Of a DNA stretch of 46,187 bases, positions 19,755 through 46,187 are shown one piece after another. This DNA is from Acutalibacteraceae bacterium (GTDB taxonomy: Bacteria > Bacillota > Clostridia > Oscillospirales > Acutalibacteraceae). The DNA lies in contig JBJEOJ010000103.1 in NCBI GenBank assembly GCA_051880655.1, positions 1-46,187 of the forward strand. The letters run 5' to 3'. Under the pieces are notes generated by a model. The model saw only the letters and a program-made list of their open reading frames with translations. It was not told where the DNA came from and made no database searches. The number at the start of each line of letters is the position of its first letter. Within the stretch, counting starts at the first letter, position 1. The translations under genes were made by a program, and so were the position numbers.

Positions 19755-19762
19755 TAAAATTA

Positions 19763-19800
19763 AAAGCAGAAAAGTTTTTACCGGGCTTTTCTGCTTTTTT
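19763..19800 (+). terminator. rho-independent terminator of the decarboxylase operon
   Basis: AAAGCAGAAAAG / CTTTTCTGCTTT stem followed by a T-run. Confidence 0.85.
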
Positions 19801-19835
19801 GCATGTTTTGATTTGATGAAAAATTTTGACAATAT

Positions 19836-19864
19836 TTGACAAAACATAAAACAAACAATATAAT
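19836..19864 (+). promoter_or_regulatory. consensus promoter of small-toxin-like locus, copy 1
   Basis: TTGACA (19836-19841), 17-nt spacer, TATAAT (19859-19864). Confidence 0.7.
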
Positions 19865-19933
19865 AAAAAGGCAGTCACATGAAAGCGGCTGCCAAGATGA
19901 GTACTGTTATATAACGGTAGGCGGTTTGCTCCC

Positions 19934-20213
19934 AAAAGCAGACAAAAGCTGAACACGATACGGTTTTAAGCGATACATTTTCGCCGATACTGCGGCAGAA
20001 ATGCTCGAAATGCGTCAGCATTTCTGCGCTTTCTTTCTTGTCTCGACAAAAATCTATTCGCTTAAAACTTCGCAGAACCTGAAAGCAAATATTTTGCGTT
20101 CATTGTGCAGATTTGAGCCGCAGACATACTGCCGTATGTTAAGGCGAAAAGCTGTGCAAGGTGCGTAAAATATTTGTTTTCAGGCGTATCGTGTTCGACT
20201 TTTGTCTGCTTAC
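19934..20213 (+). other. 280-nt highly structured insertion in the 5' UTR (three-way junction of long helices)
   Basis: Absent from copy 2, which has a GTAA loop at this position. Helices: P1 19935-19962/20185-20211, P2 19963-19973/20058-20068, P3 19992-20005/20017-20029, P4 20078-20098/20164-20184. Several G-U pairs are valid only for plus-strand RNA. Confidence 0.6.
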
Positions 20214-20229
20214 GGGAGGTGATAAGCTT

Positions 20230-20313
20230 ATGGTTACATTTGAATTGCTTATAGCATTTACTGTAATGATAATCAATCTTATCACTCTTTGTTACTTAAT
20301 TTTTAAAAAGTAA
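20230..20313 (+). CDS. 27-aa hydrophobic peptide, candidate type I toxin (copy 1)
   Basis: MVTFELLIAFTVMIINLITLCYLIFKK. GGGAGG lies 10 nt upstream. Paralog at 33716-33808. Below the ORF-track size cutoff. Confidence 0.6.
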   Translation: MVTFELLIAFTVMIINLITLCYLIFKK

Positions 20314-20336
20314 CGACTGTTAAAAAAGTCGGAACA

Positions 20337-20430
20337 TAAAAATTAAGAAACACCGCCATCTCCAATTTGCGGTGTTTCTTAAAAGAACTCGTAAATATAG
20401 AGCAAACCGCTTATCGCAGTACTCTCCCCT
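20337..20430 (-). ncRNA. candidate antisense (antitoxin-like) sRNA, copy 1
   Basis: Predicted from the minus-strand promoter (20437-20464) and a 12-bp hairpin (20345-20380) followed by a U-run on the minus strand. Complementary to the 3' UTR of the peptide mRNA. Confidence 0.5.
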
Positions 20431-20436
20431 ATTACT

Positions 20437-20464
20437 ATTATATCACATATCCGCATTTTGTCAA
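20437..20464 (-). promoter_or_regulatory. antisense promoter, copy 1
   Basis: Minus strand: TTGACA (20459-20464), 16-nt spacer ending in TGa, TATAAT (20437-20442). Confidence 0.6.
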
Positions 20465-20485
20465 TCGGCAGAGTGCGGATTTTTC
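20449..20485 (+). terminator. terminator of the peptide mRNA, copy 1
   Basis: ATCCGCA / TGCGGAT stem plus TTTT. The loop contains the -35 element of the antisense promoter. Confidence 0.6.
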
Positions 20486-20490
20486 AATAA

Positions 20491-20521
20491 CTCCATACTC
20501 CACTCTCCAAACTCCACACTG
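20491..20521 (-). repeat. GTGGAG-type heptad array (purine-rich on the minus strand)
   Basis: Minus strand reads CAGTGTGGAG TTTGGAG AGTGGAG TATGGAG. It starts 8 nt after the stop of the minus-strand flavoprotein gene. Confidence 0.7.
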
Positions 20522-20529
20522 ATTTGCGT

Positions 20530-33603: not shown

Positions 33604-33631
33604 TTGACAAAAATAAATTTCTGTGTATAAT
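33604..33631 (+). promoter_or_regulatory. consensus promoter of small-toxin-like locus, copy 2
   Basis: TTGACA (33604-33609), 16-nt spacer, TATAAT (33626-33631). Same distance to the 5' hairpin as in copy 1. Confidence 0.7.
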
Positions 33632-33715
33632 AAAAAGGCAATCACAATAACGGTTGCCAAGTAGAGTACTGTTCATAACGGTAGGCGGTTTGCTCCCGTA
33701 AGGGAGGTGATACAT

Positions 33716-33808
33716 ATGATAACATTATCCGAACTTATATTGTTCACGACAATGATTGTCGCAATCGTATCACTTTGCTACGAAATCTTTAGTAACAAGA
33801 ATAAGTAA
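33716..33808 (+). CDS. 30-aa hydrophobic peptide, candidate type I toxin (copy 2)
   Basis: MITLSELILFTTMIVAIVSLCYEIFSNKNK. GGGAGG lies 8 nt upstream and is sequestered by CTCCC-GTAA-GGGAG (33693-33706). Confidence 0.6.
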   Translation: MITLSELILFTTMIVAIVSLCYEIFSNKNK

Positions 33809-33831
33809 GCAAAAGCTTAATTTTTTAACAT

Positions 33832-33924
33832 AAAAAATTAAGAAACACCGCCAGCTCTCCAAAGTTGCGGTGCTTCTTAAAACTGTGATTCTGGAGTAAA
33901 CCACTTATCGCAGTACTCTCTTGT
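33832..33924 (-). ncRNA. candidate antisense (antitoxin-like) sRNA, copy 2
   Basis: Minus-strand promoter at 33931-33958. Terminator hairpin at 33840-33878, whose single non-Watson-Crick pair is G-U on the minus strand but A-C on the plus strand. U-run follows. Confidence 0.5.
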
Positions 33925-33930
33925 ATTACT

Positions 33931-33958
33931 ATTATATCATATTATCGCACTTTGTCAA
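33931..33958 (-). promoter_or_regulatory. antisense promoter, copy 2
   Basis: Minus strand: TTGACA (33953-33958), 16-nt spacer ending in TGa, TATAAT (33931-33936). Confidence 0.6.
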
Positions 33959-33978
33959 GCAGACAGGGTGCGATTTTT
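33944..33978 (+). terminator. terminator of the peptide mRNA, copy 2
   Basis: ATCGCAC / GTGCGAT stem plus TTTT. Both arms differ from copy 1 but pairing is kept. Confidence 0.6.
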
Positions 33979-33986
33979 ACCCTTTA

Positions 33987-35003
33987 TCAATCCGGATAGC
34001 CGTTAGGGTTATTGCTTTGCCAGCGCCATGAATCGGCGCACATTTTTTCAATTCCTCTTTCGGCTTTCCAGCCAAGCTCATTCAGTGCTTTTGTCGGGTC
34101 GGAATAGCAGGTGGCAATGTCGCCGGGACGGCGGTCAACAATTTGGTAGTTGATTTTGATTCCGCTTGCTTTTTCAAAGGCATGAACAACATCAAGAACG
34201 CTGTATCCGACGCCTGTGCCGAGGTTATAGATGTCAACGCCGGTTTTTCCGAGAACTCTTTCAACTGCCTTGACATGACCAAGAGCAAGGTCAACAACGT
34301 GAATATAATCTCTGACACCTGTTCCGTCTGGGGTGTCATAATCGTTGCCGAAAATGCGCAGACAGTCAAGCTTGCCGATGGCAACCTGTGTGATATAGGG
34401 CATAAGATTGTTGGGGATTCCATTGGGATCTTCGCCGATTCTGCCGCTTTCATGCGCACCGATGGGGTTGAAATAGCGAAGCAGGCTGATTGACCATTCA
34501 TTGTCGGCTTTGAAAAAGTCGGAAAGAATAATTTCAATCATATATTTTGTTGTGCCGTAGGGGTTTGTTGTTCCGCCTGTGGGCATGGTTTCTTTAAGCG
34601 GTGAAACATTGTTCATTCCGTAAACGGTTGCAGAAGAGCTGAAAACGATTTTTTTGCAGCCGTTCTTTCTCATAACATCGCAAAGAACAAGAGTGCCGTT
34701 AATGTTGTTGTCATAATACTCAAGGGGTTTTACGCATGATTCACCAACAGCTTTAAGACCCGCAAAATGAATTACAGCGTCGATTTTTTCCTGACGGAAA
34801 ACCTTGGTCAGACCCTCGCGGTCTCTGATGTCACATTCATAAAAAGCAAAAGCTTTTCCTGAAAGTTCTGCGATTCTTCTAAGTGCCTCACGCTTGCTGT
34901 TATAAAAATTATCAACAACAACAACGTCATAGCCTGCGTTCATCAGTTCAATGCAGGTATGAGAGCCGATATAGCCTGCACCGCCGGTTACAAGAATTGA
35001 CAT
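33987..35003 (-). CDS. galE: UDP-glucose 4-epimerase
   Basis: Start placed at [15 protein letters not shown] (GAGGTG upstream). YxxxK (YGTTKYM) and other SDR-extended GalE blocks throughout. Confidence 0.92.
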
Positions 35004-35256
35004 AATCATTCACCTCAACTATAATATATACCGTACTTGTTTTTTGTACCTTAAATATTATACAGCAAAGCCCGAAAAATGCAATAGCTAAAGCGATTAA
35101 TTTGCTGTCTTTCTTTCATACGCGGATAAAAATGTGCTTGATTTTAAGTGTTGTTCCGCCTTTTGAATTCGACAGCAATTTTCAGAACTTTATAAAATGC
35201 GCTTTCAGGCATCATAATCAATATAGGAGGTTGCGGCGGTTTGCCGCAAAAACAAT

Positions 35257-44699: not shown

Positions 44700-45010
44700 A
44701 ATTATTTATGAATCACACAGATATATGCTATGGGCTTAAAACCGAAGCATTTTGGTGAGTTTTTCCTTTCATTGCTTTTTGTTTTACATTATAACCATAA
44801 TAAAATTTAGCACATATTTAAGCGATCGGCAATGCATAGTGAAAAAGTCTCACAGCTTTTATCTGTAATAGAACGACGAGGCTTTTATAATATTTGTCAT
44901 GAAATAAAGACATATTTTCTGCGGTTGACAAAATATTATAAAAATATATAATTTAATAAAGGGCAGAAAGGAAAAATTTGCCGATTAAAAACAAGAAGGA
45001 GAAAATATTT

Positions 45011-46072
45011 ATGGAAACATTTTATGATGTGCTTTCCGAAAAAAGGAAAGCGATTGCGACACCCGATAATGTTGTGGATTCAAACGGAAATGCTTATTTC
45101 GGAACCTTTGAAAAAGAGTTCCCGAAAATGGATTTTTTGAAAGTGAACCGCCCGACGCCTTATCCGAATGCATTCAATAAGGTGAAGCTTACACTCTGGG
45201 AAGCTGTTGAAATCAACCTCAAAGATGTAATTTTGCTCACTGCCGTTTGTGATATGGGTATTTTCGGAACGGGTCTTACCGTGCTTTATGACAAGAAAAA
45301 GAAAAAAGTCACTTTCTGGCAGGATATGTTCTCAAAAAAATGTGCCGTCATTTCCGACACGCTTTTAAACGGTGATGTAACCGAATCTTTGGGCAAAAAG
45401 GTCAAGCTCAAGGTTGTTAACCATTTTGAAAACGGTCAGGCTTTTGTAACGGGTAATGCTTCTGACAAAGTAAAAGGCAAAATCAGCTATGACATTTCGC
45501 TTGAAAGAGTTTCGCTTCCGAGCATCGTTTCAATTCCGTTCGGCGACAACAGACCGCTTTATTCGCAAAAGGATTTGTTCAAAGCAACAGGCTACATAGA
45601 AGTCAACGGCGTAAGATATGAAGCTGACGAGGACAGCACGGGAATTATTGATGACCACCGCGGCTATTATCCGTATAAAGCACATTATGACTGGGTAACG
45701 ACCATGGGTAAAAACACGGTCGGCTCAGAAAAGCAATTTTTCGGCTTTAACCTGACAAGGAATCAGTCGGTCAACCAGAATGATTTTAACGAAAACCTGA
45801 TCTGGTTTGAGGGCAAAACAACTCTGCTTACTCCTGTTCGTTTTGAACATCCGGAATATAACAAATGGCGCATCAGAGATGTCTATGGCATGACGGACAT
45901 CATCTTTGACATCGGCGACCGCTTCATCATGCGAGTTCCGGCGGGCGTCATCGACATCAACTATCACATAACTTTCGGCGAACTGAGCGGCTATGTCTGC
46001 GACCCGGACGGAAACAAATATATTCTTGACGGAATGTGCGGCATTGGTGAGGATAAGAGCCTTAGGTTTTAA
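45011..46072 (+). CDS. DUF2804-like hypothetical protein
   Basis: Start placed at METFYDVLSEK (AAGGAG 9 nt upstream). The family call is from memory of DDHRGYYPYKAHYDWVT-type blocks and is unverified. Confidence 0.5.
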   Translation: METFYDVLSEKRKAIATPDNVVDSNGNAYFGTFEKEFPKMDFLKVNRPTPYPNAFNKVKLTLWEAVEINLKDVILLTAVCDMGIFGTGLTVLYDKKKKKVTFWQDMFSKKCAVISDTLLNGDVTESLGKKVKLKVVNHFENGQAFVTGNASDKVKGKISYDISLERVSLPSIVSIPFGDNRPLYSQKDLFKATGYIEVNGVRYEADEDSTGIIDDHRGYYPYKAHYDWVTTMGKNTVGSEKQFFGFNLTRNQSVNQNDFNENLIWFEGKTTLLTPVRFEHPEYNKWRIRDVYGMTDIIFDIGDRFIMRVPAGVIDINYHITFGELSGYVCDPDGNKYILDGMCGIGEDKSLRF

Positions 46073-46103
46073 ATAAAAAGCTATTTGGCGAGAAGCGGAT
46101 ATT

Positions 46104-46151
46104 CAGTGTGGAGCGTATATGAGTTTGGAGTTTGGAGTGTGGAGTGTGGAG
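46104..46151 (+). repeat. GTGGAG-type heptad array
   Basis: CAGTGTGGAG CGTATATGAG TTTGGAG TTTGGAG TGTGGAG TGTGGAG, 31 nt after the DUF2804-like stop. Shares the CAGTGTGGAG head with the 20491-20521 array on the minus strand. Confidence 0.7.
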
Positions 46152-46187
46152 TTAACCTCATTTTAAAGTTTGTGCAGTAGGGACACG

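Follow-up and report, generated by a model that had tools for sequence, protein, structure and literature searches.

A contig of 46,187 nucleotides (nt) from an uncultured gut Clostridia bacterium (Acutalibacteraceae; JBJEOJ010000103.1 of assembly GCA_051880655.1), which we analyzed whole and call the window, contains two copies of an unannotated locus that encodes a short hydrophobic peptide. We conclude that both loci, at positions 19836–20485 (copy 1) and 33604–33978 (copy 2), are probably toxin-antitoxin (TA) modules of type I, of the TxpA/BsrG/BsrE kind ("holin-like toxin", Pfam Hol_Tox) with an RNA design of the bsrG/SR4 type. Judged from its sequence, copy 1 appears to be a genuine, well-formed type I TA-like module, another member of an already known kind, and its parts recur in copy 2 and in eight related loci of other Clostridia assemblies. 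The architecture matches, at the level of predicted parts and folds, the plan mapped experimentally for Bacillus subtilis bsrG/SR4 and bsrE/SR5, in which the toxin mRNA has a long 5′-3′ helix (P1), a stem called SL1 that holds the Shine-Dalgarno sequence (SD), and a 3′-overlapping antitoxin RNA.

We computed sequence elements, predicted folds, conservation and covariation. The TA reading appears supported because convergent promoters recur, the open reading frame (ORF) is conserved, the SD is sequestered, the predicted antisense RNA is confined to the 3′ untranslated region (UTR), and the arms of P1 co-vary. It agrees with all of the sequence-level evidence that we describe.

Organization of copy 1

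The toxin promoter of copy 1, TTGACA-17-TATAAT (19836–19864, plus strand), matches the consensus at 12 of 12 positions. The predicted mRNA starts at a hairpin (19871–19892) that is present in the RNAfold minimum free energy (MFE) structure, followed by the 5′ arm of a long 5′-3′ helix equivalent to P1 of bsrG (19896–19928, from MFE pairs and duplex energy) and by an anti-SD, CUCCC (19929–19933). An insertion of 280 nt (19934–20213) separates the anti-SD from the SD, GGGAGG (20214–20219), which lies 10 nt 5′ of the ATG and has a predicted probability of being unpaired, P(unpaired), of 0.10. The ORF, read directly from the sequence, encodes 27 amino acids (20230–20313; MVTFELLIAFTVMIINLITLCYLIFKK). 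Downstream on the plus strand are the 3′ arm of the helix (20400–20426, from MFE and duplex energy) and the toxin mRNA terminator (20449–20485), which consists of a 14-pair stem (hairpin 20449–20480) followed by TTTTT.

On the minus strand, a second promoter, TTGACA-16-TGaTATAAT (20437–20464), matches the consensus at 12 of 12 positions and also has the TG extension. It lies within the toxin terminator, the −35 box (20459–20464) falling in the apical part of the hairpin. From the position of the −10 box (20442–20437) and from the fold, this promoter would produce an antisense RNA of ~95 nt (20333–20430, minus strand). The predicted RNA complements the 3′ UTR together with the 3′ arm of P1 and ends short of the ORF. 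An earlier note on this DNA, made from the sequence alone, had listed these features of copy 1, and sequence reading and scans found all of them where it had placed them, including both promoters, the nesting of one in the terminator of the other transcript, the ORF, the 5′ hairpin and the plus-strand terminator. The note had also described an antisense RNA of ~95 nt that ends in a hairpin and a U-run, which agrees with our fold; its 12-base pair (bp) stem does not, as the fold gives 14 bp (20343–20356 with 20369–20382).

Perfect TTGACA-N16-18-TATAAT sites are rare by chance: the window contains six, compared to 0.01 expected from shuffled sequence, and four of the six are in the two locus copies. 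The remaining two, both on the plus strand, are at 34997–35025, where the promoter overlaps the start of a minus-strand galE-like gene, and at 44925–44952.

A second copy in the window

Copy 2 has the same parts in a simpler form. Its toxin promoter, TTGACA-16-TATAAT (33604–33631, plus strand), and its antisense promoter, TTGACA-16-TGaTATAAT (33931–33958, minus strand), each match at 12 of 12 positions, the latter again with the TG, so that all four hexamers are perfect, as in copy 1. The 5′ UTR (33638–33707, plus strand) comprises a 5′ hairpin (33638–33657), the 5′ arm of P1 (33658–33696) and an anti-SD/SD hairpin made of CUCCC (33693–33697), a GUAA loop and the SD, GGGAGG (33702–33707). The ORF (33716–33808, plus strand) encodes 30 amino acids (MITLSELILFTTMIVAIVSLCYEIFSNKNK), and the peptide is 52% identical to that of copy 1. 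The predicted antisense RNA (33828–33924, minus strand) has the form seen in copy 1, ending in a 14-bp hairpin (33839–33879) and a U-run in the minus-strand fold, and covers the 3′ arm of P1 (33893–33923). In the MFE structure, the toxin mRNA terminator (33944–33978, plus strand) has a 13-bp stem and a U-run, and the predicted mRNA measures ~340 nt.

The 5′ and 3′ UTR parts of the two copies are ~80% identical, with identical runs of 17 nt and 21 nt within the region targeted by the antisense RNA. The 5′ hairpin is kept in copy 2 through a two-sided change from G-C to A-U (GCAGUC/GGCUGC in copy 1, GCAAUC/GGUUGC in copy 2). Since the anti-SD and SD of copy 2 form a simple CUCCC-GUAA-GGGAG hairpin, copy 1 carries a 280-nt insertion in the corresponding loop, and this insertion accounts for the 280-nt gap between CUCCC and GGGAGG in copy 1. 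The pairing between these two motifs that the earlier note had proposed is present in the MFE structure of copy 1 (with GGGAG at 20214–20218), and the long distance that it spans is peculiar to copy 1 and absent from all relatives that we read.

Related loci in other Clostridia

A scan of a genome collection with a 5′-UTR pattern yielded four loci (L001–L004) in metagenome-assembled genomes (MAGs) of rabbit-gut Clostridia, and we took the DNA of five peptide relatives as further loci (L018–L026). The loci that we read share one order of parts: promoter, 5′ arm with GGCGG, anti-SD/SD hairpin, ORF, minus-strand terminator hairpin, 3′ arm with CCGC (or CCGU) and convergent promoter. In a promoter scan, L024 was the one Clostridial locus in which the convergent, antisense-side promoter was not flagged; on the plus strand, the scan flagged a promoter in no loci other than the window copies, L002, L018 and L020. 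Accordingly, convergent pairs of consensus or near-consensus promoters are also present in L002, L018 and L020; in L023 and L025 the scan passed the antisense side only, and in L024 it passed neither side. The convergent layout that the earlier note had compared to bsrG/SR4 was borne out, with convergent promoter pairs in most related loci and an antisense RNA confined to the 3′ UTR. Both arrangements of the antisense promoter occur in the family, as in L018 it lies beyond the terminator, as in Bacillus, and in L023 it is nested.

Two of these loci have features of their own. In L001 (1557–1966), both arms of the helix are kept, as are the promoter and terminator of the antisense RNA. However, ~95 nt of different sequence takes the place of the stretch from the SD to the ORF, and the ORF carries a frameshift, which gives this locus the look of a decayed toxin copy whose RNA framework has been kept. 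In L023, one genome (GCA_965349615.1) carries two tandem copies of the module (880–1215 and 1245–1560); in each copy an additional hairpin, CCCUC...GAGGG, lies after the 5′ arm and before the SD hairpin, and the antisense terminator overlaps the stop codon of the toxin ORF.

As controls we used bsrG (L005), a BsrE-like locus from a B. velezensis plasmid (L006), a locus from Lactiplantibacillus plantarum (L007) and one from Paenibacillus (L008). The bsrG and Paenibacillus controls fold like the window loci, and the 3′ arm of the Paenibacillus locus, like that of L002, contains a pseudo-SD that pairs with the anti-SD. Short similarities between the 5′ UTRs of our loci and those of bsrG and bsrE exceed those of shuffled sequences (p = 0.001–0.02). 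A loosened version of the 5′-UTR pattern gave six chance matches in unrelated, mostly coding DNA and no TA locus in a metagenome scan, and nothing in viral contigs. By blastn, copy 2 DNA had no match in plasmids or phages.

P1 and the structures around the SD are conserved

The helix P1 is part of the MFE structures of copy 1, copy 2 and L002, with z scores against shuffles of −17.8, −9.5 and −7.2, respectively. Over the two window copies and the eight related loci, helix energies span −37 to −56 kcal/mol. In the full 615-nt mRNA of copy 1, RNAfold pairs 19899–19906 with 20417–20424 and 19915–19928 with 20403–20416, which upholds the fold-back of ~25 bp between the UTRs that the earlier note had proposed; segments of P1 include GCGGUUUGCUC / GAGCAAACCGC. 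The duplex of the two copy 1 arms has an energy of −40.7 kcal/mol, compared to −15 ± 3 kcal/mol with shuffled 3′ segments.

The two arms co-vary across loci. In all 12 loci tested, bsrG included, cognate 5′ and 3′ arms gave duplexes of −40 to −56 kcal/mol, whereas the medians for non-cognate combinations were −19 to −28 kcal/mol, and the cognate arm ranked first or tied with that of the nearest paralogue. RNAalifold recovered P1 from copy 1, copy 2 and L018, with five pairs changed on both sides. We relied on this cross-locus duplex test and the three-sequence RNAalifold run, and not on a covariance model, as a MAFFT alignment of six close loci misplaced the 3′ arm. Together with the retained ORF, this covariation bears out the expectation that related loci would conserve the module.

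The antisense terminator also shows compensatory changes, with two base-pair swaps, A-U to C-G and C-G to A-U, that set L002 apart from the window copies. Within the copy 2 stem, one position would be A-C on the plus strand and is G-U on the minus strand, and a U-run follows the stem on the minus strand only; both features point to a terminator that functions on the minus strand.

A further pairing involves the coding sequence. In the MFE structure of copy 1, ORF codons at 20278–20285 pair with the spacer between the SD and the start codon (20219–20226), and the ORF-internal UAUCAC that pairs with this spacer is kept in copy 2 in a different codon phase. When the region bound by the antisense RNA was blocked in constraint folding, the partner of the SD switched to the anti-SD, and P(unpaired) of the SD fell from 0.17 to 0.09 in copy 2 and from 0.31 to 0.08 in L002. 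These predictions are consistent with an SR4-like dual action of the antisense RNA.

The peptides have relatives in many protein clusters

Both window peptides have one hydrophobic helix and a basic C-terminal tail (27 and 30 amino acids; grand average of hydropathy 1.79 and 1.07; C-terminal KK and NKNK for copies 1 and 2, respectively). The earlier note had suggested a resemblance to holin-like toxins, and Pfam Hol_Tox (PF16935) supported it at a borderline level, just below the cutoff, scoring the copy 1 peptide at 20.7 bits (E = 3.9e-4) and the copy 2 peptide at 20.1 bits (E = 5.9e-4). The closest relative, P0001, is 70% identical to the copy 2 peptide and scored exactly 23.3 bits, the gathering cutoff of the model; other relatives scored 27.9–33.3 bits. 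Among controls, scores were 55 bits for the BsrE-like peptide, 52 for that of L. plantarum, 40 for that of Paenibacillus and 34.5 for BsrG.

A profile built from the two window peptides matched 100 clusters at E ≤ 1e-3 among 1.84 billion representative proteins. The peptides in these clusters are typically 29–32 amino acids long, with the consensus MVTY..LIQF..IVAL.sLCY.IFk.kk, and some cluster mates from Lachnospiraceae and Clostridium are named "putative holin-like toxin" by NCBI. TxpA-like peptides in Clostridiales, and their annotation as holin-like toxins, have been reported before (Fozo 2010, PMC2887945). Hol_Tox was matched by 26 of 42 aligned family members at E ≤ 0.01, and of the NCBIfam models, that for the type I toxin PepG1 was matched by 12 of the 42 and that for ComI by nine. 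The exact copy 2 peptide is absent among the called genes of the assembly collection, and a tblastn search of phages with the copy 1 peptide gave no match.

In Clostridial loci with an intact copy, the start of the ORF, its frame, its length (27–32 amino acids), the hydrophobic core, the LCY motif and the basic tail are kept. Synonymous and non-synonymous codon differences number four and two between L002 and L003, and seven and six between copy 2 and L018. The ORF is conserved and under purifying selection.

Comparison with characterized systems

One of the closest characterized systems is bsrG/SR4 of the B. subtilis prophage SPβ. Structure probing of bsrG mRNA showed that nt 1–35 pair with nt 232–262 in P1, that SL1 holds the SD in a 4-bp stem and that the terminator directly follows P1 (Jahn & Brantl 2013, PMC3834814). 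When SR4 binds, the 5′ arm becomes single-stranded and the SD stem grows from 4 to 8 bp, adding translational inhibition to RNase III-dependent decay (PMC3834814). The window loci resemble this system in that P1 closes the toxin mRNA, the SD lies in a short anti-SD stem after the 5′ arm, the terminator adjoins P1 and, at the sequence level, the 3′ arm of P1 is the target of a convergent antisense RNA that has a promoter and a terminator to itself. For the window loci, folding predicts that the 5′ arm is set free and that the SD stem becomes tighter, as was shown for SR4. The 5′ UTRs share ..CCCC-GAAA-GGGG(G)UGG.. with bsrG, and L002 also has CUGUACAU.

There are also differences from bsrG/SR4. 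SR4 is ~180 nt long, starts beyond the bsrG terminator, carries a 5′ stem-loop that is non-complementary and overlaps the end of the ORF, whereas the predicted RNAs of the window loci are ~95 nt long, have a promoter nested in the toxin terminator and stop ~20 nt short of the ORF. The toxins are also shorter (27–30 amino acids, compared to 38 in BsrG), and the RNAs have no match to the Rfam BsrG model. The host is an uncultured member of the Clostridia, with the loci between chromosomal housekeeping genes and not in a prophage, and unlike in the Bacillus systems a 5′ hairpin precedes P1.

The peptides resemble those of bsrE/SR5 and bsrH/as-bsrH in their size of 27–30 amino acids, M-x-T-F/Y near the N terminus, hydrophobic helix, L-x-Y-I motif and basic tail, and the mRNA folds like that of bsrG. 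BsrE-like loci on 510 plasmid records are annotated as "putative holin-like toxin". The window peptides are only 24–33% identical to BsrE-like peptides, and SR5 differs in leaving the SD stem unchanged (PMC6562991). The hosts listed in a review of the BsrE/H family are Bacillus, Lactobacillus, Halobacillus and Enterococcus; Clostridia are not among them.

More distant systems share fewer features. As predicted for the window loci, txpA/RatA of the B. subtilis skin element and SprG/SprF of Staphylococcus aureus have a convergent, 3′-overlapping antitoxin RNA, a toxin of the same superfamily and a double-stranded SD. However, TxpA has 59 amino acids, RatA overlaps the ORF and acts solely via RNase III decay, and the Rfam RatA model has no match here. 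The likeness to hok/sok, which the earlier note had named as a precedent for the fold-back, is limited to that principle; bsrG P1, opened by SR4, is closer (PMC3834814). Sok binds the 5′ leader, and hok is activated by 3′ exonucleolytic trimming, whereas the predicted window antisense RNA targets the 3′ arm and is placed wholly in the 3′ UTR by its promoter and terminator; peptide and hosts are also unrelated. In the par system of Enterococcus pAD1 (fst RNA I/RNA II), convergent transcripts likewise meet at the terminator region, and RNA I has a stabilizing 5′ helix upstream of the SD structure, as do the window loci. However, at the translation start RNA II additionally pairs with 5′ direct repeats, and the toxin family, Fst/Ldr, differs.

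A proposed mechanism

By analogy with bsrG/SR4, we infer transcription of both RNAs, the order of binding, cleavage by RNase III and toxicity. A strong constitutive promoter would produce a toxin mRNA closed by its own fold, in which P1 pairs the 5′ UTR to the 3′ UTR. The SD would be hidden by pairing, its partner being either the neighboring anti-SD CUCCC (stem SL1) or a stretch of complementary sequence within the ORF, and the spacer between the SD and the start codon would pair with the same ORF stretch. The convergent promoter, which has an extended −10, lies nested in the toxin terminator and would be the stronger of the two, would yield the ~95-nt antisense RNA, which amounts to a second 5′ arm with a perfect match. 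This RNA would bind the 3′ UTR, with complementary hairpin loops as the likely first contact, and then invade the 3′ arm of P1. The long perfect duplex could be cut by RNase III, destroying the mRNA, and the freed 5′ arm would let the anti-SD close fully on the SD, blocking translation. Should levels of the antisense RNA fall, residual mRNA would be translated into a membrane peptide of 27–30 amino acids that damages the membrane or arrests growth.

The insert of copy 1

The 280-nt insert of copy 1 folds into a Y-shaped palindrome, a ~27-bp stem that bears two long hairpins, one of them with a perfect 22-bp stem (−129.6 kcal/mol, z = −12.2). Its terminal inverted repeats are ~27 bp long (AAGCAGACAAAAGCTGAACACGATAC / GTATCGTGTTCGACTTTTGTCTGCTT). 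No target-site duplication is evident at its ends, it has no second copy in the window or in the loci L001–L017, and it is absent from copy 2 and the related loci that we read. Searches of Rfam (E ≤ 5), viral contigs, plasmids and phages gave no match.

The insert could be MITE-like (a miniature inverted-repeat transposable element). We consider it doubtful, and less likely than all but one of the alternative explanations given below, that it is a small mobile or structured element of a kind not yet described, with hairpin loops as its targets, or else a domesticated RNA "super-lock" or processing platform that alters control of copy 1. If so, the insertion would not necessarily be a neutral accident. 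As the insert extends the anti-SD/SD stem, copy 1 is predicted to stay locked both with and without bound antisense RNA: in constraint folding, P(unpaired) of the SD was 0.10 in the free mRNA and 0.04 in the antisense-bound form. Without the insert, the value was 0.14.

Genomic context

Both loci are located between convergent housekeeping genes, copy 1 between genes for the beta subunit of oxaloacetate decarboxylase and for an FMN reductase, and copy 2 between genes for fumarate hydratase and GalE. We rejected a prophage or plasmid context on the grounds of these neighbors (oxaloacetate decarboxylase subunits, FMN reductase, fumarate hydratase and GalE). Logan contigs of SRR30616795 (L015–L017) are 100% identical to the window, including 19755–19980 and 20332–20529, and end inside or at the edge of both loci (19980, 20332 and 33749), which suggests that these two loci break short-read assemblies.

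Similar stretches rich in (N)ACTCCA are found at 20486–20520 (plus strand), directly 3′ of the copy 1 terminator, and at 46100–46154 (minus strand), just after a gene that ends at 46072; the sequences are AACTCCATACTCCACTCTCCAAACTCCACACTGA and AACTCCACACTCCACACTCCAAACTCCAAACTC...CTCCACACTGA.

Alternative explanations

Several observations weigh against the assignment to the TxpA/BsrG/BsrE kind or to the bsrG/SR4 design. The scores of both window peptides, 20.7 and 20.1 bits, are below the Hol_Tox cutoff of 23.3 bits, and the L002 and L003 peptides have no Pfam match. Even with a threshold of E ≤ 5, neither the window nor L002 was matched by the Rfam models BsrG (RF01412) and RatA (RF01776). 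As the same models matched the control loci (210 bits for bsrG, 206 for the BsrE-like locus and 28.5 for the Paenibacillus locus; 58 bits with RatA for the L. plantarum locus), the RNAs of the window loci fall outside current models. The toxin mRNA of L002-type loci lacks a clear intrinsic terminator. Compared to SR4 and SR5, the predicted antisense RNA has neither a non-complementary 5′ domain nor an overlap with the ORF. Finally, since folding of the free mRNA leaves the SD little exposed to begin with (P(unpaired) 0.10–0.31), the predicted effect of the antisense RNA on translation is modest.

The alternative that we take most seriously, although we do not favor it, concerns copy 1 alone. 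It is possible that the insertion locks the SD permanently and that copy 1 is a disabled copy that makes no toxin, its antisense RNA still being useful and perhaps cross-regulating copy 2. The insert does add a ~27-bp stem to the anti-SD/SD pairs and leaves the SD paired in the free and bound states alike, the antisense-target regions of the two copies share the identical 17- and 21-nt runs, and L001 offers a case of toxin decay with the RNA framework kept. However, the ORF, the SD, both promoters and P1 of copy 1 are all intact, the SD is predicted to be about equally inaccessible without the insert, and the long perfect stems of the insert could instead be processing sites. Less likely is a role for both loci outside TA systems, in which a small membrane peptide under cis-antisense control would be regulatory, in the manner of the competence inhibitor ComI, and non-toxic at native levels. 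The nine family members that match the ComI model fit this idea, as does the position of both copies between housekeeping genes and outside a prophage or plasmid, and BsrE itself is only a weak toxin whose antitoxin can be deleted (PMC6562991). Yet ComI, BsrE and BsrH are also classed with this family of type I toxins, the PepG1 model is matched by 12 members, and repression in several layers (P1, anti-SD, ORF-internal pairing and a stronger antisense promoter) is typical of genes with a harmful product. We regard it as very improbable that the loci encode a pair of structured non-coding RNAs in which the short ORF is incidental. The signals of RNA structure are far stronger than that of protein homology, and the peptides score under the Pfam cutoff, but the ORF features are kept across Clostridial loci with an intact copy (the ORF of L001 being frameshifted) and in 100 protein clusters, many nucleotide changes are synonymous, and an SD of the GGAGG type lies 8–10 nt upstream of the ORF.

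Implications

As probable type I TA modules, the two loci would add an unannotated, duplicated module of this type to the genome of an uncultured gut Clostridia bacterium; they do not overturn current understanding. The compact form, in which the antisense promoter lies within the toxin terminator and the antisense RNA approximates a mimic of the 5′ arm, would provide a clean natural system in which strand displacement controls translation. At least 100 related peptide clusters exist in Clostridia and Lachnospiraceae, the majority overlooked by gene callers or Rfam, and the loci gathered here could seed an RNA family model for the Clostridial branch. The RNA design of bsrG and bsrE, with its 5′-3′ helix, anti-SD stem and 3′ antisense RNA, would thus reach well past the Bacilli.

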